Assembly: GCA_046563655.1 (NCBI GenBank)
Contig: CM102289.1
Location: forward strand, 62,001 to 126,000
Source of the DNA: Yuukianura sp. NJ FZ-2021
Taxonomy: Eukaryota
Length of the DNA stretch: 64,000 nt
Reading direction: 5' to 3'
This document shows, one piece after another, positions 39,538 to 63,517 of this stretch. The first letter of the stretch is position 1; each line of letters begins with the position of its first letter. Under the pieces are notes generated by a model, which made no database searches, was not told the origin of the DNA, and was given only the letters and a program-made list of their open reading frames with translations. The translations under genes and the position numbers were made by a program.

Positions 39538-42500
39538 ATGACCGGGAAACTTGTGCAGAGGGAAATTCTTGTTATTTTACCAGGTCAGTTTCAAACTGTT
39601 TAATTTCCATAACATTGGGATTCATTTTTCATTTTTATAATTTTGTGATTTTTAGTACTGTTGTGGTTACGTAGGACGTGCAGTGCCCTTGACTGCAATC
39701 CGCACTCAATGTTCGACTGCACTGAGAGTGGTGTCCAGAAGCCACTCACTCCCAATGCAACTACGTGCATCCCAGTGTCCTGGAAGTGTGACCAAGTCAC
39801 AGACTGCTGGAACAACGCAGACGAAGGCAATTGTCCAGGTCAGTTGACTTCAATTTTACAGACATGCGCCTAACCATGACACATTTCGGAACAGAAATGA
39901 AAAGAAGTTGTTTTGAACTCCTTTCTTTCTCAATTCGCTCTTTGTGCTGTGGAGAGAAGAAGAGAAAGTTATTGATTGCGGGGAAGAGATTCCTTCTGCA
40001 TCTGCATCCGCAGCATCCCAAGTCAGCGCAAGGACCAGTCCTTTCACCTTCCATTTCACATTCAACTCCAGCATTTTCAACTTTCACTTTTCACGAAATC
40101 AGCTTATGCGCGAAAGAGAAAGAGGAAAAGTTGTCACTTTCTTCGCCATCTCTAGCGCAGATTCCTCAGCATCCCAATCTCACACACCCACCCACTAAAA
40201 CTTACACTTTTTCACTTCTCTCTCACAAATTGTTTCAAGGAAACGATTTGTTATTAAAAATGTCGCATTTAGTAGTTGCGTTACTTTTGATCAGTTGTGT
40301 CACTTCGCAAGGTGCCTCAATACACTCAATCCCGAACAATACTTTGTTAATTTTGAACTTTTAAAACGTTTTCCTAACGACGCTTTTGTCTTTTCCAGAG
40401 TCGTTGACCTGCATGAAGTCTGTGGAATTCGGATGTCACGACAACTCCAGATGCCTCCCAGTCAACTGGCTCTGCGACGGTCAGTACTTTTATTACTTTC
40501 AAAAAAGTGACGCTTATTACACGCTTGACCTCGCTTGACCTTCTTTTTGAAATTTGCAGGAGAAGCCGACTGCGCAGACAAGTCAGATGAAGACCCAAAG
40601 ATTTGCAGTAAGAAACCTCAATTGTAGAAATGAAGTTTGAAAATTGAATGAAGGAATTGTTTTGATTACAGATGCGTTTAATTGCACAATTGACCAGTTT
40701 ACTTGCATGGATCTCAATGGAACGAAGCGATGCTTGCCACTGTCATGGGTTTGCGATGGGACACACGACTGCGTCAACGACGAATTCAATTGCAGTAAGC
40801 ACGTGCCATTCTCAACCACAAAATTAACTTTTAATTATTAGTTATTGTCTTAACTTTTAAATTGCGCCTCTTATTGATCCTAACATTTTTGGTATGCGGC
40901 ATGCCTGTCTCAACAATTGAGACAAGAGGAGGGAAAAATTTATATTTGAAAAGTTAAAATCAAAACAAAACAAATCAAAAGAAATTTAATCCTCCGAATC
41001 TAATTTAAATTGTTTGTGTTGAATTGTTCTAAGAAGAATCGTTAACGTTTCCATTGTTTTCAGATACGACTTGTACACCGAATGAATTCACTTGTCCTTC
41101 CGGCAAATGCATCAACTCACACTGGGTTTGTGACGGTAAGTCCACTGTATCATTAATTGACTTTTATCTTTTGATTAGTTTGTGTAACTTTTGTAACTTT
41201 TGACTCTGAAGGAAACAATGACTGCTTGGATGTGGATGCGTCGGATGAGCTCAACTGCACCGGAACAGAAAGTGGGGCTGGAGAGGAGTTCAACTGCACA
41301 CTGCATGAAATCTACTGCCATGGGGCTTGTATCCCCACTGAATGGTAAGTATTCCTAAAAACTTAAACTTGAGTGGATTTCTAATCAACTTTTGATGTAT
41401 CAGGGGTTGTGACGTTGGTGGTTCCCCGACTACGACAACTTCTGCCCCTGTCACCCCCACTTCCAACTCCACTCAAGATTGTTCTCCAGTGTCCCACTAC
41501 TTGTGTTCCTCCAACAGAAGTTGCATCCCCAAGAGTTCCTTGTGTAACCAAGTCAACGACTGCGGTGACTGGGAGGACGAAAGAAACTGCCACACGGACG
41601 AATGTGTCACGAACAATGGGAACTGCACTCAGTTGTGTGTGGATACACCCAATGGACACCACTGTTCCTGTAAAAGGGGGTATCAAATGATGGGAGGCAG
41701 CACATGCGTTGGTAAGTATTTCTCATAAACTAACATCCACTATTTCATTGTTTCATGATATAATCCATTTAAACTTGAGATATTGACGAGTGCCGAGAGG
41801 GGAAGCACAACTGCAGTCAACTGTGTCTCAACGAACTGGGCTCTTTCAAGTGCGAGTGCTACGAGGGGTACTTGAAGGATCCTCTCCACCCCACCTCCTG
41901 CAAGTCAATCGAAGGACACGCAAGTCTCCTCTACTTTTACCAAGGAAGTATTCGCAAACTCAGTCTGGATCATCTCAAGGTACACTTTGACTTTGGCATT
42001 GACCAGCTGATCGAAGTTTGTTATGAATAATTTCCTAATTTGTTATTCCTTAGATGACTCTGATTGTGGACAACATCTTGACAACTCTCACATCCATCGA
42101 CTACCAGTTCAGAACAGGCATGATCTTCTGGAGCGAGAACTGGAAGGGACAAGGCCTCATTTACAAGTACATTACTACATTTATACTTTAAGAATTCAAT
42201 TAGTAATTGTAAATATTGTGACTAGATCTCCAATTGACGAGGGGAATACGAACAAAATCCTCATCCAGAACCTGTCTCTGCCCGTCTACGAACTGGCTCT
42301 GGACTGGGTCAACTACCACCTCTACGTTGTCACCACAAACGTCATTCACGTCGCCACGATCGACGGAAAATTCATCACCACGCTCCTCCATCTTCCCTAC
42401 ACACCCAAGTCAGTGGTCCTCAATCCCATGAATGGGTAAGTGAACCAAAAAACAATTTCAAAATCAGATTCCTAACTTTGGATTCTACACTTAGGGGTCG

Positions 42501-44274
42501 CAGACTCGTCTAGTTTTTGAGAATCGAGTTTCGAGTCCAGAATTTGGGCGACGAGTCTATACTCGAGTCCAGACTCCAGTCTCACTTTGAACCTTAAATT
42601 AGCTATTCCGGGAATTAAGGAGAATGGAATGACTACAGATTATACCAGAATGCGTAGCATTCTTGTTGGGGATCGCCCCGGGCACGTCCAACCGTCCTAT
42701 TCACCTTTAGAATTTTCTTCCGACCACTTATTGAGATCGAAGCGTTCAACCCTTTGACCTCAACCCGTTCATTTCGGAAAAGTTCAAAAAATCAAATTCC
42801 AAAAACATGCATACAAAGGGGGCTCCCTTCCCAACAAAAAAGAAGTCTGTGCAAAACGACTGGAAATAGCTTGTAAACGTCGTGAAAAATGAGAGGAAAG
42901 AATTGCTTGTTTTTTTTTTTTGAAAAAGTTGAGAAAAAGATGTTTCTCAAAAGATGGGAATGTTTTACTCAAATTCGAAACTTCGAAAAAAAATTTTTTT
43001 TTCCGTGGAAAAGCTCATTCCGTGTTTCAGAGTGTCAGAATGAGTTTTAATTGCGTTTCGGACAAAAAGCGAACCGGGAAATTTTTTGATTTGAAGGGGC
43101 CCCTGCACTAATGCAAACCGGATTCGATTTTTTGAACTTTCAATTTTACCGTGTTATATAAAACAACTTTGGGTAAGCAAAACTAGCACCTCAATTTGGT
43201 TCAATTTTGAAGTGAGACTCGAGTTTGAAAAGCCGAAGACTCGAGTCTCGAGTCCCAAAAAAATGGACGAGTACTCGAGTTCGAGTCCGTCTCCAGAATC
43301 GAGTTTGCGACCCCTATCTACACTTTCTTTATGTTTAGGTGGATGTACTGGTTGAGCAACTGTTCTCTGGAGACAGGGACAATGGATGGACAGAATGTGA
43401 CTACAGTGGCCCACTTGCACCGACCTCAGGCCATCACGATGGACTACCTTCTGAACCACATCTACTACGTCGACTCCTCAGGTCTCAACGTCCTCCAAAA
43501 CGGACAGTCCAAGCCACTTCTCAAGGGAATCCAGTCCACATCCATCACCATCTTCGAGGACTGGATCTACGTCTTCACTGGAGATGCAATACAGAAGATC
43601 AACAAACTCAATGGCCATCCCATCAAACTCCAAAATGTAACCAATCACTTAACTTTTACTAAAAAAAAACTTGGTCTGTTACTTTGTCTTTTTTAATTGT
43701 GACTGTGTTTTCAGCTGGAGAAGCCCCTGCGAAGTATGAAGGTGTACCACACATACCGACAGGGAGACAACAGGAGCATGTCGTCATGCCAACCGAACCA
43801 CTGCAGCCACCTCTGCCTGCCAAATCCCTTCTCCTTCTACTCCTGCCACTGTCCAGAGGGATTGCTGCCCAATGGCATGAACTGCGTCGCCCAGAACAAA
43901 GTCCAGCCAAAGACTAGTCTCAACGTCCTTCTCTTCCTCGTGATGGGCGGACTGGGCGGAGTGTGTGTCGCCATCATAGTGGTATCCTGCACAATTAATA
44001 AATAATAATTAAATGATAAATATAAACAGTTAATTGGTGGTTTAGGAATGTGAGTGTGTGTTTGTAGGTGGTGTACAGGAGGAACCAGTACACGAAGATG
44101 CAGAGTGGGCGGAGTGGGATGAGTGCTTCCAGTTCCACTGGCATCATTAACTTTGACAACCCAGTTTACCACAGCAACAAAATGGAGAACCCCAAGATCC
44201 TCTCACTTCTCGCTGAGGACTCGGATGAACTGCCCACTAATCCAATGGTTCTCTCCAGTAACGAATATGTCTAG
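39538..44274 (+). CDS. LDL-receptor family protein (lipophorin receptor/VLDLR-like), divergent
   Basis: Six LDLa repeats (e.g. [60 protein letters not shown]), two EGF domains (DIDEC...), degenerate YWTD propeller, third EGF (CSHLCLP), TM helix (~43920-43981), cytoplasmic NFDNPVY, stop at 44274. Start codon inferred. Confidence 0.9.
42492..43316. mobile_element. hAT-type MITE in an intron of the LDLR-family gene
   Basis: TIR taggggtcgcagactcg / cgagtttgcgaccccta; perfect 8-bp TSD tctacact (42484-42491, 43317-43324); subterminal actcgagt repeats. Confidence 0.92.
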
Positions 44275-46732
44275 ATAACCCACCTACTGTCTACTGTATC
44301 CATGACACTAAATGCTCACAAACACGTAGATGGAATCGTGGTGTGGAAACTTTGAGACGAATAAACATTTACATGGTCATTTCGACTTGCGTTTACATTC
44401 GTTGAACTTACATTTCAGGGCTTCATTAGAGTTCCAGAACCATTGCAGCAACTTCGAAACGACATTCTGTCCAGATTCAGTCAAGAAGTGGTTAGGAAAA
44501 AGTTAATTGATTGATTAGTACTCACTTGCCCGTTTACTTTAACTTTAGTTTAATCTAATTTGTTTTGATTTTAACTTTTGAATTTTGGAAATAATTTCCT
44601 GCATTTTGTCTCAAGTCCAAGTTGCACTGGTGTCTAATGCTGAGATAACCATTCTGCAGTTTCTCTTCTTTTCGGAGAATTAGCCTCCAATGGAACTCTG
44701 AACTTGAGACAAAATCACTAAAACCAACTGGCGGAGGATTTTTGTTACAACGGAGGTCCGCACTTGAATCTAGTTGGTACTCGTCTTGGTCTCATATAAA
44801 AGGAGACACAAACCAAAATTACCTCATTCCTACTCCGCTGGAGTAGGATTAGGCTGAATTCTACTCTTTTGGAGTTGGCTTGCGGGGGAGGCTGTGAGGT
44901 GGCAATGGCAAAAATGCATGCAGGGGCCATCCCAACTCCAAACCCCGCAACATCTTCTTTTCACAAATTCAATATTACAATGTTTTGATGCATCTATTCC
45001 CTGAATCATTTGATTGATAATTCAATCGATTATTTAACTAAAATAAGAGTTAATTGGAGATAGCAATTAAAAATAAGTGAAGAAGAAACAGATCTTGTTT
45101 GTTCACATAAGGAAACTGAGTCTCCTCTTCCTTCATCTCTCGTACGACACCAAAGAAGTGAATGAGAAGAATTTGTTGAGCTTCCCTTTTATATGAAGTC
45201 GAAAGGAGTAGAACGAAGGAGTGTTTTACTCTTTTGGAGTTGGATGTTGGGGGAGGGAGTGGGTGGCAATGGAAAAAATACATGCAGGGACCACCCCAAC
45301 TCCAAAAAACCCCCAGAAATCAAACATTTTGTGTGAAAAAACGGAGAAAGTTCCTCAAAACAGGCAGAATCTATTGGATGTCACTCCAGTTCAACTTTAT
45401 TTTGGTTTTTGACGACAAACTCTCATCTTCTCATGCAGTTTCACTTGTTAAATCCAAGTAAAAGTCCCAAAAGCTCTTCAGTTTCACTTTCTTTACATGT
45501 TTTTCCAAACTTTCTTTGTACTTATCTTATGAAAGTTTAAAAAAATGCATTTTTCATGTTATTTCACGGAAAACAGACCTGAAAAGGCCAATTAACGAGG
45601 GAATTGCTGTTTTCTTCTTGTTAAGAAGCAAAAACGGGAGCTGTAACAATTTTCTCGTGTAAAAAGTCATTTGTGATGCTTTTCCATAATCATTTCGTAG
45701 GAAAAACTAAAAAATTTTGAATGTGAAAAACACAGAACGTTCCTGAGAACAGGGAGACTCTGTGTGAGTTGACTCTTGACTCCACTTTATTTTCAGTTTT
45801 GGTTTCGTCCACTCCAACAACACAAATTCTACACACATTCTCTCTTGTTCAAAGTCAAGGTCAATGTTCAAAAGCTTTCCAGTTCCACTTTCTCTTTATT
45901 ATTTTCACTAACTTTCTTCCTAATTTTAGTTTCCATTTGAAAATACATTTTATTCAAAAACCAACCGTTTAAAATGGAAGTTATGATGGAAAAAGTGTTT
46001 CTTGTTGTGAAGAAACATTTACTACACTAGTGAACGTTGTTTCACTCTGATCAACCGCCATTTTGAGTTCCAGATTAATCGTTCAAGACTTCGTAATTTG
46101 CACAACACTCCAAATGACAAATAACTTTCTCCTTCAAAGTTTTTTTGATCTTCATAGTAGACTAGACGCCTTCTGAGAAGCAGAGGCGCCAAACTCCCAA
46201 TTTGAAATTGAACCAATATAAACAAGTCCAACAAACAGCGTTCTACTCGTCCCTCCTCATGCCTTCACACATGGGTATCTTAAAAAAATACAAACAAAAG
46301 ACACTTAAGTAAACTGCAAAGAATCCGCTCAAGCTTAATTAGTATTAATTTAGTTAATTAAAATTAAAAAAGTATTAATTATTTTATGTTCATTTTCATG
46401 AATTTGTTGTTTCTACTAATTTTACTTGCTGTTAAATCCCACGTGTAGTGTTTTTCCAAAGTGGGTGAAAGGGAGATATGTGTGACCGCCAGAGTTACGT
46501 CTATTCAAAACCTTTCTGTCACTACTCTGCGCATTAAAATCCGGTGATTTACTTTAATTTATTTAATCATTTATTTAATTAACAATTAACAATTAAATGT
46601 AACGTACGATTAGTAAAATATAAAAGTAGTAACAACTACCCACAAACACAAGCACCAGAAACAGTAATTGGACAAATAAATTAGAAATTGCGAAGAGTGA
46701 ATGGAGAGGATGGTGAAAGTTCCTTCAGTCGT

Positions 46733-49700
46733 TTAGTTTTTAGTCACTACTTCGCACTTCCCGCGTACACACACCCTTGTCTCCACTGTCATGGACGACT
46801 CCATGCGCACACTTCTCTCGGGACCAGAGTGACCTTGACCCACGTCTTCTGCCCCACCAGACACGAGCGGAAGTGGGACCGATTGGGCACTTTGCTCTTC
46901 TGCTCCTAGTTTCCACTGGGCGCGGTTCCCTTTTCGAACGAGCTTCAACCTTCTACGAACTGGCTCTCCTGCAAAATCACCAAAAACAAAACATTCATAA
47001 ATAACTTTCTCTTTTTTAAAATCTTGCTACTTTTTAGGTTTTTGTAGATGGAGCTAAGGTCTTACCTTCAATTTCACCAACTCTGCTGGAGAAAGTGTGC
47101 TGGAATGGGTGTGGCGTTGTGTCGGGAACTGGTGCTTGGTGTTCAGTCATGGGTGGAAAAGTTGGCTGCGCAAAGGGGAGTTGTTGTGGACGTCTTCTGC
47201 GCACGACGCGAATTCGTCTTCGACTCGGATTCGCTTGACTGATTGTGGAATGAAAGTTTTCATTTGATTCCGTTGTTCCCTTGGCGTAAGACACAATGTT
47301 CATTTGGTGAAAAGTGGGTTCCGGTGGGGCATTCTCAGTCACTGGAGGAACAATTGTTGTTATTGTTGTGATGGGGGCGGTGGTTGTAGTCGTTGTTGTG
47401 GTGGATGGGGCGGTTGTTGTTTTCACTGTTGTGGAAAGTACTGCCGGAATTTTGGATTTTGGCAAAGACGTTGCTTTCACTTTGGCCTCGTTTTTTCCGT
47501 TTTTTGTCGGAGCGGGAACTTTCTTCTTGGAACTTTTCTTTTTCGTACTTTGCTTTTTAGTTCCTTTTTTAGTTGACTTTTTTGGTGTTGATTTTTTGTT
47601 TGATTGTTTTTTGGACGTTCCTTTGAGCGTTTGGAGCAAATCGTCTGGATCGTAGTAGTCAAGCATGGCTGATCCCAAATCTCCATAGTCAGAAAGTCCA
47701 CCAGTTGCTTGAATTTTAGATTGCAAATTTTTGAGCATTTCTTTTAATTCTAAATCATTGTAGTCACTCTCCAGAGATCCAACTTTTACTTTTCCACTTT
47801 TCTCCAACTTTGTCTTTTCTGGTTTTGCTTTCTCCTTCTTCAATTTTGACTTTGTTTGCTTTTTTGCTGTGGGTTTTGCCTTTGCCGTAGTTGGTTGAAC
47901 AGTAGTAGTTGTGGTTGGTTTTGGAGTAGTGGAAGTAGTCGTGGTGGAAGTTGTTGTGGACGGAGTTGTTGTTGTTGTAGTTGTAGTTGTCACTTTTGTC
48001 GTCGGGAATGTCGTTGAAGGTTCTGGAGAAACGTCGTCATTTAGAAACTCCATCGTGGGTCCCGTTTTCTTAACAACCAAATTGGAGTTGAGGAGCGACA
48101 TTGCTGCATGCCTGAATGTCTCCAATGGCGACATTTCTGCATGACTGAATGTCGCCATTGGCGACATTTCCCCTCCCCCAGTCCCTTCTGCTCTCAGTTG
48201 AAATGGACTTGAATCTTCAGCGGAAACCAAGCCTTGTTTTCGTCCTCCGTTCGGTTCTTCGGCCGACAACAGGAACATGTCTCTCTCCACTCCGGCAGAG
48301 GGAAGTTGTGGTGCCGTATCGTGTCGCCTGTTTTGCTGTTGCTTGTTTTGCTGTCCCTGATTTGCTACTTTTCCTTGTATCGCTCCCTGTTTCGAAACGA
48401 CGCTCTCTTGGCGCGTAACTGCGTAGTGCGGACTCATGAATTCCTCCTGGTCCATCCTCTCTTTTGTTTTCCTGTACTCTGCTGCTGTTTGAGAAGCGCG
48501 AAATGGAGGCAAAACGCGTTTGGCTTCATGTTCCTGCGCATGGGCAGAAGGACGTCTGCGTCTCTTTGGTTTTTGAGTCGTTGTGCTGGTGGTAGTTTTC
48601 TCTGAACTTTCTTCACTTTCGCTCTCACTTTCTTCAAATTCCGGAGCGGCAGTTGTGGTTGTCGTAGTTTTGCGTCTCCCTTTGCGTCTCCTTGGTTTTT
48701 CAGTTGTCGTAGAAGTTGTCGTAGAAGGAGTCGTAGAAGAAGTCGTACGCCCCATTTGGAAATAGTTGTTTTGGTAAATGTTCATGTCCAGTTCATTACT
48801 CTCGTCACTTCCAGAAGAGAATTTCGTAAATTTAGGACGCGAGGGTGAAGCAGGCGTTTTGACACGAACTTCGTAAATCGTTTCTTCTTCTGTTTCTTTT
48901 TCTGGTGCAGTCGCTGTAGTCTGGACAGTGGGCGCCGACGCAGAGAAGTCGTACAAGTAGCGAACAGGCTCCTTCTTTTCCTCTTCTTCTCCAAGTTCAT
49001 GCACAAAAGTTCTAACTGGGGCCATTTTTTCTTCGTCAGTGTCTTCGTACTGACTCGGTTGTTTCCGGAGGCCAACCTTCGTGTTGTCATCCTCATATTC
49101 GTCACTGAAAGGAGCTTCTGTAGTTGTAGTTGTTGTTGTTGTTGTTCTGACTCTGTGTTTTCTGTTTTTGTGAACATAGACTGGGATTAGTTTGTGGGGG
49201 TCACGAGCTGCCTCGAGAGCTTGAGCACTCGGGGGGATTCGGAACCTCGTTCGGTATCTCGGTTTGTCCTCTTCGGGGATTCTGTTGGCAGGCGTAGTTG
49301 TTGGTTGTGTTGTGGTTTCCTCTTGACCTTCCCAGTTGTAGTTGTAGTACTCCTGTTGTTGTTGTTGTTGTTGTTGTTGTTCATCCAAAGTGTACTGCAC
49401 AGGCTGGGCAGAAGGCGAGACAAACTGAGGTTGCGCAGAAGGAGAAAGTAGATTAAATTGTGGCTGGGCAGAAGAAAATGGGAGATTGTACTGAGGCTGT
49501 GCAGAAGGAGATGGAATAGTGTAGAACGGTTGAGCAGAGGGAGATTGAGAATTGAATTGTGGCTGCGCAGAAGGAGACTGCGGATTAAAGTGTGGCTGCG
49601 CAGAAGAAGATTGTTGACTGAAATGTGGCTGCGCAGAGGGAGATAGGTAGGGCATTTGGTATTGTAGGAGAATGGGTTGTTGGAGCATTGCGTTGTTTTC

Positions 49701-52700
49701 TGGTTGCATGAGCATGTGATTTTGAAAGTGGGCGTGGTTTGGTTGGTGGGGGAGGGGCATGGGGAGTCCATTGGAGACTGCGTACAGAACAGAAGCTCCG
49801 ATGTCCTTGGGTTCCATATGAGAAGTGTCGTGTTGCCATTGGTTGTTTGTGAAGGTCATTGACCTCATGAGAGCATGCAGAGTTCCTGCCCCCACAGAAC
49901 CAGCCTTTGACCTCTCGTAGGATGAGAGTGGGGAGGGTGGAATGGGTGGGGCTGTGGTGGGATTCTGGATATGTGGTGGTCGCCAAGTACTCGGTTTGGA
50001 TCGTTCATCCTGTTTTGTTGTTGTTGATTCTGTGGTAGTTGTTGGTTTGGTGGTAGATGGCGTCTGTGGAGTTGTCGTTTTCTGTGTGGTTGTTGTGGCT
50101 TCTGTTGTAGTTGTTGTTGTTGTTGTAGGTGGAGTTGTTGTTGTGGTTGTTGTTGTTTTTAAAGTGACAGGGTCTACACTAGGACCGTTGTTTCGAAAAG
50201 GCTCCCAAATCGGCGTGTCCCCAATTATTTGCATGTCCGCCCCAATTTCTAGTCCTACGTTTCAAATATAGATTGATCAAAATTTGCAAAGAAATAGCTG
50301 AATTTTTTAAATTTTTAAAAATTATTGAGAAAGCATGAGAGCTTATCAAAAAATTCCAAAAAAAAAAATTCTAAAAAATTGACCTGAATTTTGTGACTGG
50401 CGACTGGAGGGATTTTCCGAAAGTGGCATTGGAGACGACGACGGAAAGAAAAGTAGTCGCTGCTCTTCTTTTTTCTCCTCCACTTTGACCTTTGGTTCCC
50501 CAGAAGATGGCGCTGAGGGGATGAAAATCAATTTTTCATTTGGATTCTGCGCACTCTTCTCCTGTTCTCTTTTGTTTTCAGCAAGTGAAGGGCTCTTCTG
50601 GTGATAAGGGTACATGAAATCCCCGGGGTTCATTCCGTTGTACCCCACGGGGTTCACGCCCTGTACTCCGTTGTACCCCACTGGCTGGGGAGAAGTACCC
50701 ATCATGTATGCATATTGTTCCTGCATGTTTTGACTGGCCATGTAGTGCTGGAAAGCAGGGTCAAAGTGTGATGGGGTAATGGAAGTGATGGGGGTCATGC
50801 TCTGAGAGTTCATAAGATCCCCAGATCTCACTTTGTGGCGTCCATTGGGGTCAAGGGTCGTGGACCCTTCAGTGGAAGTGGGCCCTGAACTGGGGGTACT
50901 GAAGGGCTGCATTGGGAAGGACTCAAACAGAGGCCAGCCTGCCATTGAAGTTGGACCAGGAACAGGGGAAATGGGGTGATGGGGGTATAATTGTTCCTTC
51001 ATCTTTTCAAATTTCATCTTGGACGTTAGAAGTTCGGAAAATGAGGTTCCAGTAGGATTGACCCGGATTGACCCTTGGGCTTCAGGAATTGACCCAGCAG
51101 AAAACTGTTCATTTGGATTAGTAGAATCAACGTTTGAGTCTTGAGGGTATCCGGATTCTGGTTTTGATTTTGAATGTTTTGACCCTCCTGATTTGACCTT
51201 TGACCCTTCATGGCGGGAATTTTTAATTTCTGGTGGAACTGTGGTGGATGGCTGCTCTTCAGAGGACTTTGAAAAATCTTTGTTGCTAAAAAGTGAATCT
51301 TCTCTTTCTGTTTGACCTTTGACCTTTTCTTCCTTGAATTTTACCCTCTCTTCATGTCTTATGCTTTGAGCAGTTTGGTGCGGTCGGATGATTGTTCTTT
51401 CCTGTGTTCTGATTTTGGATGGAACTGATCCGTTCCAAATGATCTTCTCCTCGGTCCGCACTTTTTCGATGACCTTGTCCTCGTCTTTCTTTGGCTCCCC
51501 CTGCAAACTGTTGGGCTTTTCTTCAGAAGAGGACTTCCGAGGCCTCTGCGTTGTTGTTGTTGTTGCTTCTGTTGTTGTTGTGGGTACTGTTGTTGTTGTT
51601 GTTGGAATTGTTTGTGTAATAAGTTGATAGGTGGCTGTTTGTGAGTGTGAGGGTGGAATGCCTTGGACGGGGGTGAGAGTCCCTGCAGTGGGATTGTACA
51701 AGTATGACGTAGGAGTGGGTGATGATTGGAGGGGTGAAAGACCCATGTTTTGTCTCATCACATTCTGAATTGCGTTGGCATGCATGTCCGATGGGTTAAG
51801 AGTGAACATGCCCAGTTGACCTTGAGAGGGGGCCAATATTGTGATGGGTTGCGGAACTTGAACGGGAGGTTGTTTGCTGACGACATAAGTGGCGGGGGTA
51901 CTTGAAACATAAGATCCAGGGGTACTTGAAACATAAGATCCAGGGGTACTTGAAACGTAGGTTCCAGGGGTACTTGAGATGAAAGTCATTGGAGTGGATG
52001 AGGGGTAGAAGGGGGTAGAAGAGAAGAGTGTATTTGGCCGAGGGGTTGGTGAACTAACGAAGGTGAGGGGAGGAAAGGGGGATGAAACGAGAGGGAGAAG
52101 GGGTGAAGGTCGAGTGGTGGATGAGGGGTACATTTGGGGTAAGTGTTGAGGGGGATGAACTGTGGGGAGCCGTTGAGGGGGATTTTGCCAGGGAAGGGGT
52201 AGTGGTGTGCTGAATTGAGGGAGAGGTGAGGGAGAAGCGTGTAGAAATGGCCTTGGAGGGGGTTGCGTTGGAATTTGGATGGGGGGTACAGGGGGACCTT
52301 CTTCTGAAGCACTGTCTTCGTCTTCGTTGTTGAGTGAGGTGATGATTCTCCTCAAGTTGCCTAGATTTGAGTCTGGCCCCCCTTGGATGACGATTGTCTG
52401 TGGATTGTGTTCCCTTGACCCTTTGCCGTGACCTTTGACCCCTTGAGGGCTCAGCACAATTGTCGTAGATGGTTTTTCTCTCACTTCTACTTCCGTGGAT
52501 TCACTACTGTCTGAATCATCCATCTCTTGGTTAGGTCCTTCTCTTTCCTGATTGGCTGGACGCCTCCGTTCTTGATTCTGATTGGCTGGGCGCCTTCGTT
52601 CTTCATTTTGATTGGCTGGACGTTCTTGATTTTGATTGGCTATACGTCTTCGTTCTTCATTTTGATTGGGCGGATGTCTCTCTTGATTTGGCGGGAAAGT

Positions 52701-55343
52701 TGGGTCTTCTTCCTGATTGGCGGGACGCCTTCGTTCCTGATTCTGATTGGCTGGACGTTCTTGATTGTGATTGGCTGGAGGTCGCCTGTGAGCATTTCCC
52801 ATTGGTTTTCCACTGATGACTGGAGGAAGAGTTGACTGGATTCCAAGGAAGGAAAGCGCTGTTTGGAGCAGGGGAGCTCTCGTGGGCTGTCTCTGTTGCT
52901 TTACTCCTCTTTCTTCACTTTGACCTTGACCTTTGACCCTTTGGTCAACAGAGGGGTGAATGCTCATGGGAATTCCTTGTGGTTTCACTTCTGTGGGCAT
53001 TGGAGTTGGTGGGCGAGGAGGGGCGGGGGTGGAAGAAGGCGGGGGAGGAATTAGCACTGGAAGACGAGCCTTCTTTTGCTCGTTTTGTGTTTGAACAGGA
53101 TTTTGCTGCGGAGGATTTCTTGGCGGGAAGAGGCTTTGGGGTGCAGTGTATCCCGGTGGAAACACTAAAGTTTGTTTTTGTTGCTCAAGTTGCTGTTGAT
53201 TCATTTGCATTGGTAATTGTTGTCTCTGGCCCTGCTGTTGTTGACCCATTTGGTTTTGCTGGGGAAGCTGAAATTGTTGACCATTTTGACTTTGAGGTAG
53301 TTGAAATTGTTGACCATTTGGTGAAAGTTGAGGATTTTGAATCATTTGAGCTTGCGGAAACTGTTGACCTTGTTGATTTTGTAGACCAATTGGAAATTGT
53401 TGTTGGACTTTTTGTGGATTCCATTGTTGCTGTTGACCTTGTTGCTGGAAATTTTGATTCACCGGTGGAGCGTTGTTGGGGCTCCAGTTTGGTGGGAATC
53501 TTTGAGGTGGTTGAATGTTATTTTGGAATTGAGTGGGAAGTTGATTGTTTGTGATTTGTTTATTCCATTGTTGTTGACCAAATGGCATTGGAGTTGTGGA
53601 ACTTGGACCTTCCGTTTGTTTAACAATTTCTCCAATAATCTTTGTCAGTTCGTTTTCTGAAAATCCACCATCTTGAACTTTTGGCAGAGAAATTTGAATT
53701 CCTGGATTCACCACAACTTTGTTGTTATTTGGTTTCTGTTGATTCAAGTTCAAATTTCCAAAGTTTTGTTGAGAATTTGGCTGTCGACCATTTCCACTTT
53801 GACCCTGTTGTTGTGCTGGAGGCCATTGCTGTTGAAGTGGTGGTTGTTGCCATTGTTGCTGTCCTTGAGTTTGAGGCCACTGCTGATTTTGTTTAGGAAA
53901 TTGCTGTTGTGCTGATTGCTGTTGAACTTTTTGATACTGTTGAGCAGGCGGCGGTTTAACAACTTTTGGAGTTGCGATTGATCCTGCCATTTGAGTGTCC
54001 CCAAGGCCCCCTCCTAAACTCTGAATGCTTTCCACAATTGCTCCCTGCGGAAGGACTCCTTTGAGGAGACTTAAGGGGTCCGCAGAGGGGTCAAGGGCTG
54101 GGCCCTGTACGATTTTGTAGCCAGAGTTAAATCTTGGTGCGGAATTTGAAAACTGTTGAGTATTTTGTGGTACTTGAGGTGTTTTTCCTTGCCTTAGAGC
54201 CTGGATGATCTTCAGTTTTTCATCTGTTGACAGAGTGTTGAGTGACTTTGTGTTTGTGTCCATAGTGATTGAGCCAGAACCCTTGCTTTTCAAGGGACTT
54301 GAGCCAGGGGGCAATAGGATTTTGGTGTAGCCGGGTGGGGCGGGCATGGAGGCGGGACCCAGAAAAGTGTCAGATCGTGAATTAGTGCTGGTGCTGTGTT
54401 GAGTGCCACCAACTTGGAGTGAGCCCTGGACCAAGTGCATGGTGGCTTCGTCCATTTTGGGCATTTGATCTTTCCCGGGTTTTAGACTGGGGATTGGGAT
54501 TTTCCCGTAGCCGTAAGGAGGTTTCGTGTCTTCCGGCGCCAAAAACACAGAGGGCAGATTAGAGCCCGGGAGAGTCCCGTTGAAAAAGGGGACTTTGCTT
54601 GAGCCTGCGTACTTTTTGATGACTTGGCCCACGTCTGCGCCTGCCCTGGTCGCTGCAATCCCTTCATGTCGCATGAAAACATTGATCGGTTTCTTGGGAC
54701 TCAGTTTTGTCAAAGTATTAGTCATCTGAATGATCTTCTCCTTCTGCGATGCCGTCAAGTGAGACTTTGACAGTTCTTCTGTCGTGATTGAGACTTTGGA
54801 GGGGTCATTGACCTGCGATTCACCTGCCGAGGGCATTCTGAGGTCGGTGTTTGAGAGTCTGATTTTGGTGGGCCAGTTTTTGTTGGTGGGTGGAGATGGT
54901 GGGTTGGAGAGATGGTGGTGTGTGTTTGACTTTGGCCAGGAGTCGTGCAGATGGCCTGTTTGTTGCGACACTGGACGGTGGTGGTTGTTTTTGAGATGGT
55001 CGTGATTTGGGGTGCGTGGTTGTGGCGGGAGAGAAGCCACTTTCCGATTTGAGTTTTGATTGGAGGCGGAGTTTGAGGGGAGAGCCCTTGAGGCTGGAAA
55101 TGGCGGGGGGCCTATGGGGGGTCTTAGGGTGGGGGGCGGAGGGGGCATGAAGAAGCGACGTTGTTGCCCCCCTGCTCGTGGCGTCCGAACTGCCGGCATG
55201 TTCGGAGTCCAAACTTCCGTATTTGGCCCAAGAGCGTACGAAATCCATTCAATCTTCCCTTGACCTTGACCTTCACTCAAGGTCACATAAAACAGGAAAC
55301 TGGAAAACACTAGTAGAACACCCATCATGCTGGATTGAGCCAT
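46733..55343 (-). CDS. Very large secreted low-complexity (mucin-like, Pro/Gln/Thr/Ser-rich) protein; exons 55343-50384, 50254-47066, 46968-46733 (2794 aa)
   Basis: Signal peptide MAQSSMMGVLLVFSSFLFYVTLSEG; the 1665-aa, 1066-aa and 71-aa ORFs join in frame through two phase-1 GT-AG introns (8385 nt total); poly-Thr tracts, Gln-rich and Lys-rich blocks. Confidence 0.85.
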
Positions 55344-58300
55344 CTAAAATAAAACAGAAAAAATTCAAAAAAATGTAAGAGTTGGTTTTTCTAAAATCGC
55401 AAAACCCCTTTCTTTTTAAGTATTAAAATACTTTCTTTCAAAATTAAAATTGCGTGAATTGTATCAAAAATTGCGGTACTTAAGGAAAAAGTGGATGAAA
55501 AGATGAAACCATTTCAAATTTTGGCATTGCTTCACAGTTTAAAAAAAAAAAAACTTGGTGGAAATGCGTACTGGGGCGTCGCCCCAACTAGAAAAGTCAA
55601 GTTGAATTTCTCTTTGGCCGACTGAGATGGTTTTTAGAGGTGAAACTGAACTAAATTGTGTGATTTGATTGATTTGTAAAACGTGACTTAAGTGAGTAAT
55701 GTGTTTGAAATAATTATAATAAATCCTGTGCCAAGTGGGTGAAGGGAGTAACTAGAATGAGGAAGCGTGCTGGGCTTCTCCCCATCTTCAAACTTTTTAA
55801 CATTTCTGTTTTAGTTTTTCATGTTAATCTGAAGCAAGTTTGTAGAATGTAGATCAGAAGCAGTTGCTTTCACTTGCGTAGATTAGAGTGGGAAGTGACC
55901 AAGAGATTACAAATTGGAATTAAGTAGATGAATCAAGGAGTCTATGAAGATGTGTTTTAAAAAGTGGATAGTTATAGTATGAAAAAAAAGAAATGGAGGA
56001 AGTAGGTGATGACCTTCGAGTGTCCATTCCGGTTTCCAACCTTAAAACACTCAAAATGAGGAACTTTCCGCGTACAACTTTCACTTCAACTTTACACATT
56101 TTCAATTACAACAATTAAGATGTTGGGAAATTAACAAATGGCGATGGTTTCTTCAACAGGATGAGTAGGAACAGCATCACGAATTCAACACGTCTACATC
56201 ATAAAATTAGAAGCGACGAACAACAAAAATTCAAAAAAGCAACATTTCTCATGTTTTTTTCAATTTATGTTTCTCGGCAATTGGGGATGTTTGGGAGAAG
56301 AATTTTGGATGGTTGTGATGAATTGTGGTTGCGCATGAGCAGAATGAATTGGAATTCAAATTTCGTGTAGAGGTAGGTAAATGTAGTTGGCTCAAAGTGC
56401 AAAACATGCCCAGAATTTGGTCAAATTTTGGTAGAAAAACTGAAAACCGGTTTCGGATTGACTTTTTACTGTAAATCCAAACCTACCTTCCAAAAGACTA
56501 AATAGGCCACTCAGGCAAATGGGGCATTCAGTCACTCATCCAATCCTTAACTTTTTACAAATTTCTCAAATTGAACTTGTTTGAACTGTTTTCTTATTAA
56601 CTTCTTAACTTGAAATGTTTTTAAATGTTTTGTGTGACTTTTAGGCTAAAGAACCAGAGTGAATTAACCTAAAGAAAATGAATGATTTTGAAATATCGTG
56701 GGATCTTTTGAGGAATTGTTTAACATTTCATAAAGGTTTAAACTTCAAAAATTTAATGTTTCAAATTTTAGTTTCCATAAGATTTATTGAGTATAAATTT
56801 TTGTGAATTCCTTTGTAAAGATGAGGTGAATGTCATGAGCAGAAAGTGCCGTTAGGGGTAAGAAGAGCAGAGGGAATTTATTGGAAACCGGTTTGTCTCA
56901 TTTTGAATTTGAACCTGCCGAGTGACTCAATGGACAATTCACTTACTGAGAATCGAGGTCACTGGTGTCAGGGTCAAAATCCACACACGGATTCCAACCG
57001 AAAGTAACACACAAGATCAACTTTTTTTAAAAACTTATATTTCTCAAATGAAACTTTTAATAATATTTTAGACTCAACAGTTTCAAAGTGAATGAAGAAA
57101 CATAAATCTTTTTGTGAGATGAGCGAAATGAGAGTTGAGAGAAAAGGTGAAAGTTGGCTTTCTCTCCTCTCTCAACATTTAACAAACGCTCGTCCTTTAA
57201 GTTGAAAACCTTTTGATCCACTTTTCCCTCTTAAAGCATTTTTGACCATTTCATCGAAACATACTTTGTCGAAAAACCTTTTGTCGAATCTATAATTAGT
57301 CGAAATATTTTGTGAGTTACCATGGATTTTGTCCAGCAGTGAGCTTCTCTCCTGCTCATGGTCTAAATCCAAAAATTAAATAAACTTTGGAACTTTTGTG
57401 TTTGTGTTTGAGAATCCACGTCACTTCATGTCACACACTTTAACTTTGACCTCTGCAATTTCAATATTGCCCAGAGGTCAAGTACACTTGAACCACAGTT
57501 TCCAGCTCAAAATCCTTTCCAAATTTTGAAACTTTTGAAAAAGTCGTAAAAAATAGGAATTGGTTGTAAATGTAAGTTTGTTGATTGTCCCTTTGCGCCA
57601 CTTGTTGGATCCTGCTTGTCGGTGGACAGTGGTTGAGTGGTGGATGTGGCCACTGTGCAAGTAGGAAGTGAACTCCAAAGTATTTTGAAAACTGAAGTGG
57701 TGGCGGGTGGGTCCTTGGAGTGGCCCACTGCCCAATTCCTCAGGCTCAATTTCCCCACACAGTTCCTTCAGAGGCTTCGTCACGTCTTCTACTCGTCCCA
57801 CCGGTTTACCCACTTCTCCAAAAACTCAAACTACACAAACACTACTAGTTTCTCCACCACCTTCCAACAAAATTTATCCAGTTTCATGAGTTCAACATTA
57901 AAAACTTTACATGAGTGAAATTAAAACACTCCACACAAGATTTACAAAATTTTGAACTTATACCTAGAAACTGACGTGAGTATAGAATTCCTTTTTCTTG
58001 TAAATGGGAAAATCCCCATCGGTTTTCTTTATGAATCTCAATTTTCAAAAATTACATTTTCAATTTATGCGTGCAGACATGCAAATTTTAAGGAATGTGA
58101 AGTTGTGGAGTGAAAGTAGAAATGGATGAGTTGGAGAAAATGAGTGATGTGAACGCCACTTCCGAAATTAAGTTCCTCTCGTGCTGTGCTGTTTCTTCCC
58201 ATGCATTTCTCCCATCTCTTCTCCTATCTCACGCAATGCAACTTCTCGCATCTCACATCTCAGTTTCTCCTTTCCTCTGTAGTTATTTATCACTTTGTTA

Positions 58301-58647
58301 CTTTTCTAACTTATTATTCTCAACGAAAGAGGAAAGATGCAGAATATAATGTGAATAACTAAATGTTCATTTGGAAATACACAAAATGGAATTGGTTGGA
58401 ATGATTAATCGGGCACACTCCTTCCTTTAATGTCGTATCTCCTCTTCCTACCACAACATCACCACACAATTAATTCAAAGTTTGAGTGTTAAAAAAGCAG
58501 AAGATTATGCAATTGAAACCCGGAAAGGGAGGGAGTGGTTGGAATGCGGGTAAAGTTGCTAGATTGCCCAATTGACTTTCTCTTATAAACCCCCTTACCA
58601 ACATCCTTCCACACTCAACTTCCTTCCACACACTTTGAATTTCCAAA

Positions 58648-59623
58648 ATGGCCAACATGATCCTGTCTCTCTGCTTCTTGGCTACCCTCGTAAGTTCCAA
58701 AACTATCACTTTCACTTTCTCCAATTTAAAACTAATGTTGAATTTGTGAGTTCCAGGGGTTGGTCAATGGATTTGGTGAGGAGATTGAGTTTACTCTGCA
58801 GAGTTCTTCTGCTCCTCAAGCAAACTACGACCACTTTCACCCAGGGGCTCAACTAATTGAGAAACCAAAGGAGACAGTTACGCAGAAGTGCATTTTGAAC
58901 GGAAAAGAGGTACCCTGCGACTCTCTGAGTGGAGGTACCATCACAACCAAAGAAAAATGTATTCTCAATGGTAAGGAGGTACCCTGTGGCTCAATCCTCA
59001 CCGGAGGTACCCAGACCACCCAACGCTGTCTTCTCAACGGAAAAGAGGTACCATGCGGATCAATCCCAAGCGGAGGTATTGAGACGCAGGAAAGGTGTCT
59101 TCTCAACGGAAAAGCGGTACCCTGTGACTCAATTCTCACTGGAGGTACCCAGACCACCCAGCGCTGTCTGCTCAATGGCAAGGAGGTACCATGCGGCTCA
59201 ATTCCCAGTGGAGGTATCGAAACGCAGGAAAAGTGTCTTCTCAATGGGAAAGTGGTACCGTGTGACTCTGTCTCTGGCCTTGGAGGTACCCAGAGGACCC
59301 AACGCTGTCTTTTGAATGGGAAAGAGGTACCTTGCAACTCCATTCCGAGCGGAGGAAGCGTATCTACGGAACAGCGGTGTCTTTTGAACGGAAAGCAGGT
59401 ACCGTGCGACTCAGTTCCGACTGGAAGTGGCCAGACCCTTGAGCGGTGTTTGTTGAATGGAGAGTTGGTACCCTGTGATGCTGTTCAATCCACCTCCACG
59501 CAGAAGTGTGTGCTGAATGGGCGTCAAGTGCCCTGTGACTTGGCTCTCGGTTCATCCGGCCCTCCAGTCTCCAGGACGCAGAGGTGCACGATGAATGGAC
59601 AGCCAGGCCAATGCCCACTCTAA
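58648..59623 (+). CDS. Secreted protein with 11 tandem C-x2-NG-x2-VP-C repeats; exons 58648-58689, 58757-59623 (302 aa)
   Basis: TATAAA ~58584; signal peptide MANMILSLCFLATL|GLVNG; phase-0 gtaagt..ttccag intron; ~23-aa repeat TQ(R/K)CLLNGKEVPC(D/G)SIPSGG with synonymous divergence between copies; AATAAA ~59711. Confidence 0.9.
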
Positions 59624-60748
59624 ATTTTCAACTACAAACTCTAACATCTCACTTTCAAATAATAACAATAACACAAGTCTATTTGGTCAACAATTGGAAA
59701 ATTCAAAGGAAATAAACAAATTCTACCCTCACTTTCATTTTTACATCTTTTTCGCAAAATGTAACATGAAATTTCAACTCGAGAACGTTTCCCACAACTT
59801 CCTACAAAAGTTGTTGTTGGACGCTTCTCAATTTTTAAAATTTCCAACAAGAATCATTTTAAAAAATGTAAAGGAACTGGGGTTTGTATTGTTGGCTAAA
59901 TTTTGAAAAAATCACTTGTTTTAGAATCGCTTTTTCTTAATTGGAGGGAGTTGATTATGGCGGTTGGCGGACCATGGAGTTTTATAATTAACTGATTAAT
60001 TAATTTGTGGTTGTTGTTATCTCGGGGTGGAAGTTCGTACTTCCGCACCACAAAAAATCATTTCTGCACGGCTCAATTAACTTATCTAACTAACACTCCG
60101 AATTTCGTTTTAGGTTTTTGTAATTCACTTTTTGTAATCAAGAAACAGAAGTTTCCGAAGCTTAATTTTCACATGTCCCTCTTTCCTGTTTTCTGGCTTT
60201 CCTCTCTTATAAGACGCGTCTTATCTAGGAAATTTCAAAAAATTGTGGAACAAGAGAAACTTTTTTCCCGAAAAGTGATCAATATTGTTAAAAATAATGT
60301 AAGGAGTTTGAAAATGTGCTAAATTGTGGTCCAAAGGGGTTTAGTCCTGTGTTAGTTCAACAACCTCATCAGTATTGTCACAGTGCCTGGAAAATCAAAT
60401 TGGCACGGAGCCTCTTGAATATTTAAAAGGTTTTTACCTTTTAAAAATTTGAAAACCGTTCAGGGAACTGTACCAATCCACTTGTTTGCAACAACATGGC
60501 AGAATTTGTGCGAATATTTTTATTTATATTGCATGTGTATGAATAATGCATGAAATGAATGTAGTGTATGACCTATGTTTGTCATGAGGGTGAACGACCT
60601 GACGTGACTTGTGATCGGATTTACTAATTAAAATCATCCTTAAATACCTCTCCATTTTCCCACTTTTTAACATCATTTCGCTCTTTTTAATATCACACCT
60701 CCAATCCCAGCATCTACGTTCTTTTTTTGAAAAAAAAACTAGGAGAAG

Positions 60749-61164
60749 ATGAAGGCGTTGTGGGGAATTTTGTTTTTGGGACTTGTCGTAAGCTGGGAAA
60801 ACTTTCCACACACCTACACTTTCTCTTATGTGGAATTTCGTACATTTGCTCAAATGAAAAACTAACTGTTGGAATTACAATTTTAGGGTGTTGTGCCAGG
60901 AGCAGTCGTCTCATCCCAATCCAACATCCTAAATCCGTTTGTCGCGCTAGCTCGCGTAGCGATTAACACAATTGATGACTTTGTGGGAAATGAAGGTAAC
61001 ACCCAAACATCACTACTGTGTAACTAACTTTAAAGTTTTATTTTAAAGTTCGTGGTTGAAAGTAAAGTGATCATGTTTCAGTTGGAGCTGTGAATAATGT
61101 CACTGCTGGATGTCCTATTCCAATTCCAGGCTTCTGCAATCCCAACCAAACAAAAGTGTTTTAA
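60749..61164 (+). CDS. Small secreted peptide; exons 60749-60787, 60887-60995, 61082-61164 (76 aa)
   Basis: MKALWGILFLGLV|GVVPGA...NPFVALARVAINTIDDFVGNE|VGAVNNVTAGCPIPIPGFCNPNQTKVF*; canonical splice sites; promoter and exon 1 paralogous to the gene at 61513; AATAAA ~61194. Not in the ORF track. Confidence 0.75.
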
Positions 61165-61512
61165 TGTCACCAGGAAGCGGCATGGTTTCCAAAAATAAAA
61201 AATTATTTGGGCTGAGGCTAATTAGGCAGTTGGATTTGGCACAATTTAACTTGGATGTTGGAGTATTCCATTGGAGTATTCGACGTTGACATTTGTTCCC
61301 AAAAACGTAAAGGTTAAATATGTACAAAGTTGACTTTGATATTTTGTGGGTGGAGAAAGTATGTGCAAGTGCAGAAGCGGAGTTGCCGTGGTTCGTGGTC
61401 AGATTGACCAATTTACTTCATCTTTAAATACCTCACCACTTTTACACTTCCGCTTTTTAATTTATTCACACCTCAAGTCCAATCCTCCACATTCATTTTT
61501 TAAAAACAGAAA

Positions 61513-62248
61513 ATGAAGGCGTTCTTGGGAATTTGGCTGTTTGGAATTGTCGTACGTAGATAAAAACTTGTCCAGATACAAAATTTTGTGCTCAAATTTG
61601 TAAATTTGCTCTACTCAAGTACTAACTGTGTTTATAATTTTAGGGAGTTGTGCAAGGAGGCTTTTTGGACAGAGTGGGTCAGTTTCTGTTCCTCCAAACA
61701 TAGAATTTGTTTATATTTTTGAACATTTAAGTTGAATGTTTGTGTTTGTGAGCGTAACTGTTGTAGTTACTCCCTGCAGGTAGTGGTTTGGGTCACCTTG
61801 GTTCTTACATTTTGCCTGAGGACTCTACGCGAGCAGCTTGTTTTACGGCAGGATTGTACAACCGAGAGCCTGACGGAGGCCCACTCCTCAGAGACGCCAG
61901 CGGAGGAATCTGTAAACTCACAAATTTACAAACTTCCAAAGTTGTGGTTGTTTTAAATTTGGGATTGTTGTAGTTGGAGCTGCTGGAACTGTGATTGGGA
62001 CGGTCATCGACACAGTGGGGACAGGCAGTACTTCTGAGAATGCTTGCATCTCTGCTGGCTACTATGACCCCACTCTGGATGCTCAAGGGAACCCCAAGGG
62101 GGGTCAAGGTCACCAACTAGGAAGGGGCAACATCAACATCTACACTCAACGTCAGCAGCACAACACGCAGACTACTGCTTACAAGTGCCTCCTTAACGGA
62201 GTCCAGGTGCCCTGCGACAAAGCAACCATTGCGCAGGCCCACGCTTAA
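61513..62248 (+). CDS. Secreted protein with C-terminal C-x2-NG-x2-VP-C module; exons 61513-61551, 61644-61677, 61780-61911, 61974-62248 (159 aa)
   Basis: MKAFLGIWLFGIV|GVVQGGFLDRV|GSGLGHLGSYILPEDSTRAACFTAGLYNREPDG...|FGAAGTVIG...SENACISAGYYDPTLD...YKCLLNGVQVPCDKATIAQAHA*; exon structure shared with the paralogue at 62786. Confidence 0.88.
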
Positions 62249-62785
62249 CTATCGGCATTTCATTTCATCAATTTAGCAAAGTAACACTTCCTAAAAATGG
62301 ACTTTCAATTTTTACCACACTTGTAACATTCTGAAAATTTTGGAAGGGAAAAAAATGAGTTGTAATATAATAATACATTTCTTTTTTATTCTTTTGAAAT
62401 AGTTTTCTCAAACTTTTTAAATAGCATCAAACCAGGAAGCGACGCGGTTGAAAAAAAAATGAAAAAGATTATTTGAGTTGAGGTTAATTTGAGAATTGAA
62501 GTAGCCACAATTAAAATTAGCGTGGTTTTGAAGTGTTCCAGAGTAAAAATTGAACGTGTCCGTGGTTACCGCAACAGTTTCGGTTGGAGATAAGTTGTAA
62601 TCGTCGCTTAGCAACAGTGTAACTTCCATTTCTACCTTGCGGTGGAAACTGAATGTGGAATTGCGGAAAGTGGATAGTTGGTGGTCAGATTTCTCAATTT
62701 ACTTTCTCCTATAAATATCACACTCAAATTGACGCAAAGTCCAAATCCACTCTAACTTTTAACAAGGTCTTTAGAACCATAAAAA

Positions 62786-63517
62786 ATGGGAAAGTTGTTG
62801 GCAGTTTGTCTGTTAGCAGTCGTCGTAAGGAAAATCACAAACAACTCAAATCAAATACTCAAGCTTTTTCAAACTGAAATTGAATTTTGAATTGTAGGTG
62901 GTGGCTGATGCCCGCGTGAAGCGAGGGCTGGGAGATGTTATTGGTCAGTTTCAAAATGTTCCAATTTTTGTTTTTTGAAATTTCATTTTGTTTTATAAAG
63001 GTCATGGGTTGGGTGCTATTGGGAGCGTCATTCTGCCACCGAGTGCGACCAAGGCTGCGTGTGAAGCTGCTGGACTGTACAACCGAGAGAGAGACGGAAG
63101 CCCACCAAACCGCAAGGGCGGAATCTGTAAGTTCTCTCAACAAATTTCCAAATTTCATTTTTAGTTTTGGTTTTTGAAAATTTTGAAAACTTTTGAAAAT
63201 TTGAACATGAAGTTAGGCCTGCTGGACATGTGATTGGTGGAGTGATCAACACTCTGGGCTCAGACAGTACTTCCGAGAGTGCTTGCATCACTGCTGGTTA
63301 CTACGACCCCAACCTGGATGAGTATGGACGCCCAAGAGTGCAGGGTGGGACCGGAGGTGGGTTGGGAGGTCAAGGTGGAACCACCATCAACGTCCACCTC
63401 AACGGCCAAGGTCAGCAACAGCAACAACAGAACACGCACACGACCACGTACAAGTGCGTCAGGAACGGGCAGACTGTGCCCTGTGATGCTGCCACCATTG
63501 CCCAAGCACAAGGCTAA
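62786..63517 (+). CDS. Paralogous secreted protein with a furin-type site; exons 62786-62824, 62898-62943, 63001-63126, 63213-63517 (171 aa)
   Basis: TATAAATA ~62710; MGKLLAVCLLAVV|VVADARVKRGLGDVI|GHGLGAIGSVILPPSATKAACEAAGLYNRERDG...|FRPAGHVIG...SESACITAGYYDPNLD...YKCVRNGQTVPCDAATIAQAQG*. Confidence 0.88.

Follow-up and report, generated by a model that had tools for sequence, protein, structure and literature searches.

Pneumococcal LytA carries choline-binding repeats of ~20 residues, each a β-hairpin plus a linker, in which aromatic residues bind choline (PMC4471590), and the designed hairpin BH8 (ITVNGKTY) is built on a type I′ Asn-Gly turn (PMC7915549). Among arthropods, drosocrystallin and the horseshoe crab proteins stablin and proxin are matrix proteins cross-linked by transglutaminase, an enzyme whose Lys-Gln linkage is also reported from the cuticle, clot, and peritrophic matrix of Drosophila (PMC4646701); for the springtail surface, one account describes glycine-rich structural proteins in general terms only (PMC9861782). 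Here we describe a cluster of four genes from Yuukianura sp. NJ FZ-2021 (assembly GCA_046563655.1), found in a stretch of 64,000 nucleotides (contig CM102289.1, positions 62,001 to 126,000; C7:62001-126000) that we call the window and whose numbering is used for all coordinates unless a contig or locus is named. Three of the four genes encode the ten-residue module C-x2-NG-x2-VP-C, which gene 1 carries as a tandem array and genes 3 and 4 as a single copy near the C terminus. Comparison of their DNA identifies the genes as tandem-duplicated paralogs, and their products may be secreted matrix or gland proteins, with that of gene 1 acting as a multivalent cross-linker.

The four genes are compact and lie on the + strand, as a preliminary description of the same DNA had it: all four models have GT-AG introns and zero internal stops, and the TATA-like boxes it had listed read TATAAA before genes 1 and 4 and, in a variant form, TTAAATA before genes 2 and 3. 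Its signal-peptide exon of 13 to 14 codons was recovered in every gene (14, 13, 13, and 13 codons in genes 1 to 4), followed in 4/4 cases by a phase-0 intron, with the refinement that the hydrophobic N-terminal stretch extends a few codons beyond exon 1 into exon 2. The C-x7-C loop claimed for gene 2 was also located (Table 1). The predicted proteins comprise 302 amino acids (aa) for gene 1, 76 or 84 aa for gene 2 (depending on which of two possible phase-1 donors, 60996 or 61020, is used), 159 aa for gene 3, and 171 aa for gene 4. Secretion, which had been proposed as well, is predicted for the whole family, including three further members introduced below, because an N-terminal hydrophobic stretch is present in 7/7 proteins and no later 19-mer exceeds a mean hydropathy of 1.3, leaving no later transmembrane-like segment.

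Gene 1 had been credited with 11 module copies, of which 10 are exact; the last is degenerate and lacks VP (CTMNGQPGQC). The single C-terminal copy claimed for each of genes 3 and 4 is exact in both, giving 12 exact copies in the window versus 0 in 100 base shuffles of positions 22001 to 64000. Across the 98.7-Mb, 22-contig genome, the back-translated module pattern gave 15 matches, 13 of which belong to the gene family; the remaining 2 fall in short frames that look non-coding, and the reversed control pattern gave 1. The two matches outside the family (L041, C6:4962494; L055, C8:5559547) lie in similar 30-base stretches, possibly a shared small RNA or repeat. Over all pairs of the ten gene 1 modules, the proportion of synonymous differences (pS) was 0.705 and that of nonsynonymous differences (pN) was 0.166. 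The modules are thus under purifying selection, and the array is old and has been retained for its protein sequence; among genes 3 and 4 and two paralogs elsewhere on C7, pS was about twice pN in 6/6 pairs. The claim that these are genuine protein-coding genes gains support from this selection, and an artefactual origin of the cluster was rejected on the strength of the clean gene models and the same evidence.

Within the gene 1 array, Val occupies module position 8 in 10/10 copies, Lys position 6 in 8/10, and Gln position −1 in 6/10, and a Thr/Gln-rich stretch precedes the first predicted strand of each module. The turn face (L-N-G-K-x-V-P) is nearly invariant, which fits a single fixed ligand bound by avidity. 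None of the 223 residues of the array is aromatic, which argues against binding of the chitin or choline type, and His is likewise missing; the mature protein has 22 Cys.

Promoter-to-intron-1 DNA is homologous among the genes, and it is for this reason that we regard them as tandem paralogs. Measured against 100 shuffles, alignments reached z 36.8 for genes 2 and 3, z 18.0 for genes 1 and 4, and z 13.7 for genes 3 and 4; for genes 1 and 2 no significant alignment was obtained (z 2.2). The 5′ DNA of gene 2 is a close copy of that of gene 3. Instead of unrelated components that share a tag, the cluster comprises members of one paralogous family, three of which (genes 1, 3, and 4) have the module in common.

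The preliminary description had overlooked that the small proteins have as their conserved core a repeat other than the NG module. Genes 3 and 4 consist mostly of two copies of this core unit, the first in exon 3 and the second where exon 4 begins. Each copy has a Gly-rich amphipathic part and then the motif S-x3-[AG]C-x2-[AV]G-x-Y-x4-D, with one Cys in all; in gene 4, a Gly/Gln-rich linker with a Q6 run follows the two repeats. Seven family members were found at three loci: the window cluster (four), C7:2.61 Mb (two), and C6:6.13 Mb (one). The C7 and C6 paralogs share the four-exon layout. Those on C7 have the core, a Gly/Gln linker, and the tail hairpin, are 45 to 53% identical to genes 3 and 4, and include one whose tail module reads CFRNGVQVEC. 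As the C6 paralog keeps the core without a hairpin, the hairpin is a tail that is optional within the family. The genome searches, whose counts are lower bounds, turned up neither another array gene nor a gene 2 paralog, and no array gene was found within 50 kb around the C7 paralogs, which lie 2.5 Mb from the window cluster. Two other features stand near those paralogs: at L007 ~2900-3330, a duplicate of the DNA upstream of the second paralog followed by an isolated exon-2-like piece, probably what is left of a gene, and, between the two genes at L007:4444-5691 (−), an intronless open reading frame (ORF) of 416 codons without a Pfam match.

The most likely origin of gene 1 is a gene-4-like ancestor that lost the core and amplified the tail. 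This derivation rests on the 5′ DNA and the module because the similarity of the gene 1 spacer to the paralogs is not significant; for the same reason, a strand suspected to be common to the spacer and the paralogs was dropped.

The module is plausibly an Asn-Gly hairpin. In a single-sequence AlphaFold2 (AF2) model of gene 1, two short strands flank NG in 10/10 exact modules, usually followed by a short helical turn. The corresponding model of the last exon of gene 4 has one helix over the core Cys and another at the end, with a coil linker and then the hairpin between them. Of the disulfide-closed NG β-hairpin proposed earlier, the hairpin in every module is thus seen in a low-confidence model, whereas the disulfide goes beyond what the model shows. 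We picture each module as a self-folding unit that would be closed by a Cys1-Cys10 disulfide, and the small proteins as a helical two-repeat core, probably linked through its two single cysteines. Autonomous folding is supported because the module sits amid low-complexity linkers in two unrelated proteins, described below. The module center resembles BH8 and the first hairpin of the protein G variant 1em7 in having an Asn-Gly turn with Lys next, a likeness that reflects generic hairpin propensity and not homology (E 7 for 1em7). Fold searches with the models returned nothing at E ≤ 0.001 in Foldseek and a best Z of 2.7, or nothing, in VIA-align, the models being too weak to exclude a fold.

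As the preliminary description had reported, the genes could not be assigned to a known family; we provisionally regard them as an orphan family without detectable known relatives. Profile scans, run on separate exons (exon 2 of gene 1 and the tested exons of genes 2 to 4 and the paralogs), gave nothing above the curated cutoffs of Pfam or NCBIfam for the exons scanned, and a sub-threshold Pfam match, Metallothio_6 (E 0.045), falls far below its cutoff. PDB sequence searches gave best E values of 1.6 to 7 or nothing, the ESM Atlas held no usable match for gene 1 or the last exon of gene 4, and a protein search of plasmids, phages, and viral and metagenome contigs was empty. Three protein searches by word index, run with gene 1 (158-504 aa), with an alignment of last exons (49-186 aa), and with one of the core repeats (78-2000 aa), were empty as well, at a sensitivity limited enough to miss also the two bacterial-type proteins P0005 and P0008 treated below. 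Among specific candidates, the von Willebrand factor type C domain is a ten-Cys domain that begins C-x2-NG-x2-Y; the present modules have Val at position 8 where that domain has Tyr, two Cys in each unit, and no Pfam match to it. Neither the module motif strings nor the family appeared in the literature searched; supplementary gene lists, which lay outside that scope, could bear on novelty.

The system had also been described as lineage specific. That no known family was found agrees with this, but arrays of the module also occur in two bacterial-type exported proteins from metagenomes. A phmmer search with gene 1 against 1.84 billion representatives gave 17 matches, two of them with true module arrays of 4 to 6 module-like units each: P0005 (E 9.2e-15), a JGI "hypothetical protein" in a cluster of 2 (P0005/P0021), and P0008 (E 1.5e-10), an unnamed ENA singleton. 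Judged by eye, their N termini are lipoprotein-like and Sec-like bacterial export signals, and neither belongs to a Pfam family. The other 15 matches were set aside, 13 having no C-x2-[ND]G-x4-C unit, P0012 two loose units, and P0020 a different repeat. The seven C-x2-DG-x4-C repeats of P0020 score 17 to 26 against the module and may be a cousin hairpin type.

Like gene 1, P0005/P0021 and P0008 carry tandem C-x2-NG-x2-VP-C-[DEG]-x-[IV] units amid low-complexity linkers. Against the gene 1 modules, 8/10 of the P0005 and P0008 units score 44 to 57, close to the gene 3 and 4 tails (54 to 56), the other two scoring 26 to 27, and several share a downstream D/E-S-I with gene 1. Such agreement, together with the hundreds of foreign genes reported from springtails (809 in Folsomia candida [PMC5490193] and 253 in Orchesella cincta [PMC4987106]), might suggest that springtails and bacteria have the module in common through horizontal transfer and that it did not evolve twice. 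The likeness is limited, however, to ~13 residues: linkers differ, the bacterial-type periods are mostly 21 to 46 aa, nothing is alike outside the module, and P0005 has an extra C-terminal region. Composition by itself predicts ~390 single strict motifs in the library, and ~4.5 with three extra matching positions, before hairpin propensity is considered, and x-N-G-K is in one account the generic best hairpin turn (PMC7915549). Moreover, the springtail family is intron rich with saturated synonymous sites, and DNA scans for two modules gave chance matches only (1 in GTDB genomes, 5 in metagenomes, 0 in viral contigs), the pattern having required 10- to 20-residue linkers and an AAC first Asn codon, so that long linkers such as those of P0008 would escape it. 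Six loci from the DNA-pattern scans (L034-L039) were rejected as out-of-frame chance matches or non-coding repeats. We therefore hold convergence to be likely and transfer to be unlikely.

As to function, we tentatively favor, at slightly less than an even chance, the reading that the family consists of secreted matrix or gland proteins. The gene 1 hairpins would be beads on flexible Gly/Ser/Thr linkers, binding a protein or polymer by avidity through the L-N-G-K-x-V-P face, and the protein would thereby cross-link a matrix outside the cell, cuticle or a gland secretion for example; in the small paralogs, the single hairpin may be an optional anchor to the same matrix. Gene 4 and the two C7 paralogs, which have Gln runs, are predicted to be processed at dibasic sites, and the Gln runs, together with the conserved Lys of the modules and a Tyr conserved in the small proteins, could later serve for covalent locking, either through transglutaminase or through oxidative cross-links. 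The gene 1 array resembles the LytA repeats in its predicted plan of hairpin and short linker, repeated every ~20 to 24 residues for multivalent binding, but it contains no aromatics, has a pair of Cys in every repeat, and matches them neither in Pfam nor by fold; when β-β solenoid packing was checked, the gene 1 hairpins were modeled weakly and no significant fold match emerged. With drosocrystallin, stablin, and proxin, which are secreted mesh formers, the family shares available Gln and Lys as a matter of composition, and no sequence relationship to them was found.

Several points weigh against this reading. Confidence in the models is low (mean pLDDT 43.7 for gene 1 and 42.1 for the last exon of gene 4), so that the disulfide and the absence of packing between modules remain predictions; at the protein level, the likeness of the gene 1 spacer to the paralogs falls short of significance (p 0.16-0.9); and the transglutaminase step is drawn from composition. 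No Rebers-Riddiford (R&R) or other chitin-binding signature was found in the family proteins (the R&R consensus, as a regular expression, matched 0/7, and Pfam gave no match either), in addition to the array being free of aromatics. The family is small, with the seven members found, and bulk cuticle families are usually larger. Finally, the dibasic processing and amphipathic Gly-rich stretches of the small proteins would also suit a precursor of defense peptides.

This last possibility, in which genes 3 and 4 and the paralogs encode precursors of membrane-active Gly-rich amphipathic peptides freed at a dibasic site and gene 1 encodes a multivalent, rosary-like protein for trapping or recognizing microbes, is the strongest alternative, although we consider it improbable. 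It draws on the RVKR of gene 4 and the KR at residue 20 of both C7 paralogs, after each of which come GL and an amphipathic stretch, on the occurrence of small secreted Cys proteins in a tandem cluster, and on a single κB-like site (GGGAAAATCC) at 58006-58017, 642 bp upstream of gene 1. However, a dibasic site is present in 3/7 members only (none in genes 1, 2, and 3 or the C6 paralog), the amphipathic windows have a net charge of −2 to +1 and hence are not cationic, and the occurrence of a strict κB site near 1/7 genes is what chance predicts from a background of 0.086 per kb. κB, GATA, FTZ-F1, and ecdysone response element (EcRE) sites near the family genes formed no pattern. The families of antimicrobial peptides (AMPs) reported for Collembola in one source are diapausin, defensin, Alo, cecropin, and diptericin (PMC10051947); the small proteins, which have 2 to 4 Cys in their mature part, gave no Pfam match to any of these or to another AMP model.

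We regard as distinctly unlikely the proposal of the preliminary description that the hairpin is a homotypic tag by which the small proteins dock on gene 1 through β-strand addition, forming a defined complex. In its favor, a module found singly in genes 3 and 4 occurs ten times in gene 1, all within 5 kb, the common upstream DNA suggests co-regulation, and the Thr/Gln-rich stretch before the first strand could pair with another strand. Tandem duplication alone nevertheless accounts for the clustering and the common promoters. The core also occurs hairpin-free in one paralog, and around the two C7 paralogs, which have retained the hairpin, the 50 kb searched yielded no array gene; in addition, a Pro such as that of the second strand tends to prevent pairing along the edge.

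Still less probable is a ligand-binding loop that would hold a metal through the Cys pair or occupy a protease active site, making gene 1 a high-capacity sink or inhibitor. The Cys content of gene 1 and the sub-threshold Metallothio_6 match speak for a metal, but an extracellular setting favors disulfides, the array has no His, and the match is far under its cutoff. For an inhibitor, one could point to segments of thyroglobulin type-1 domains, to which the family bears a loose local likeness (helix, C-x3-G-x-Y, and a hairpin ending NG-x-E-VP). That domain is described as having a CWCV signature and three disulfides (PMC7863939), whereas the family has one Cys per core repeat, no Pfam match, and no CWCV, the C[WYF]CV signature being found in 0/7 proteins; the loop is also conserved, in contrast to the hypervariable loops often seen in inhibitor arrays. 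Ice binding by Thr-rich strands was dropped because the spacing is irregular.

Orphan secreted cysteine-rich families are common in springtails (Orchesella cincta alone is credited with 1,169 lineage-specific families [PMC4987106]), so that the family by itself is modest news. Its kind is familiar: these are secreted cysteine proteins that appear to form a small family restricted to one lineage, a single member of which has amplified a repeat. What lacks a description, so far as we found, is the module. Within one 5-kb cluster, a terminal mini-motif can be seen amplified into a repeat protein, with single-copy and motif-free states persisting in the genome, and the arrays of the same motif in two unrelated bacterial-type exported proteins point to a reusable minimal fold that is undescribed in the libraries searched. 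As a long shot, the 10- to 13-residue disulfide-stapled Asn-Gly hairpin might be an undescribed minimal binding module of exported proteins in bacteria and in one animal, serving here as a click tag that docks small helical cargo on a ten-site scaffold to be locked into a surface material such as an omniphobic epicuticle or an adhesive. Should the hairpin turn out to be a true binding tag, it would add a natural interaction module of very small size and open a way to the study of surface materials in springtails.

Table 1. Coordinates of the gene cluster, its modules, and the paralogs outside the window
Feature	Position	Strand	Remarks
Gene 1 TATA box	58584..58589	+	preceded by upstream motif AATT[GT]ACTT, common to genes 3 and 4
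Gene 1 exon 1	58648..58689	+	most of predicted signal peptide; phase-0 intron 58690-58756 next
Gene 1 exon 2	58757..59623	+	predicted signal-peptide end, ~40-aa spacer, module array, stop
Gene 1 array	58889..59536	+	ten exact C-x2-NG-x2-VP-C modules; period 20-24 aa
Gene 1 degenerate 11th module	59585..59614	+	C-terminal; C-x2-NG-x4-C
Gene 1 AATAAA	59711	+	
Gene 2	60749..61164	+	exons 60749-60787, 60887-60995 (or to 61019), 61082-61164
Gene 2 C-x7-C loop	61111-61137	+	gene 2 also has an amphipathic stretch
Gene 3	61513..62248	+	exons 61513-61551, 61644-61677, 61780-61911, 61974-62248; 4 Cys
Gene 3 core	61780..62098	+	two repeat copies (exon 3, exon 4 start), one Cys per copy
Gene 3 single module	62186..62215	+	near C terminus; helix predicted after it by analogy with gene 4 model
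Gene 4	62786..63517	+	exons 62786-62824, 62898-62943, 63001-63126, 63213-63517
Gene 4 RVKR	62913-62924	+	convertase-type site (sequence motif)
Gene 4 single module	63455..63484	+	near C terminus; predicted hairpin then helix
Two C7 paralogs	L007:1718-2587 and L007:7098-7918 (C7:2611718-2617918)		70% identical mutually; KR then GLAD, two core repeats, tail hairpin
C6 paralog	L017:1176-2169 (C6 ~6.135 Mb)		both core repeats, no hairpin tail; 125 aa, 2 Cys

Elsewhere in the window, two long low-complexity ORFs of 1665 and 1075 codons, with 84 bases between them, occupy 47034-55343 (−) and are divergent from gene 1; the first begins signal-like, both are Pro/Gln/Thr-rich without a Pfam match, and together they may form one mucin-like gene. 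A 16-kb satellite with a 22-bp unit (~736 copies, 95% matches) spans 5040-21269 and is adjoined by 13-bp arrays at 1-4874. A formin gene with an FH2 match lies at ~27978-33188 (−), with Pro-rich FH1-like repeats at 30100-30500, and an LDL-receptor-like gene was recognized by eye at 39600-44300 (+). Some 13 kb beyond the window, an ORF at L011:1870-3066 (−) has a terpene synthase family 2 domain (PF19086, above cutoff). A basal hexapod, probably a springtail, is the source that this ORF suggests together with two genome-wide results: just 2 weak matches to the odorant-receptor family (best 26.6 bits) and three matches above the Pfam cutoff to odorant-binding proteins, a group reported in one source from hexapods only, Collembola included (PMC4145409).

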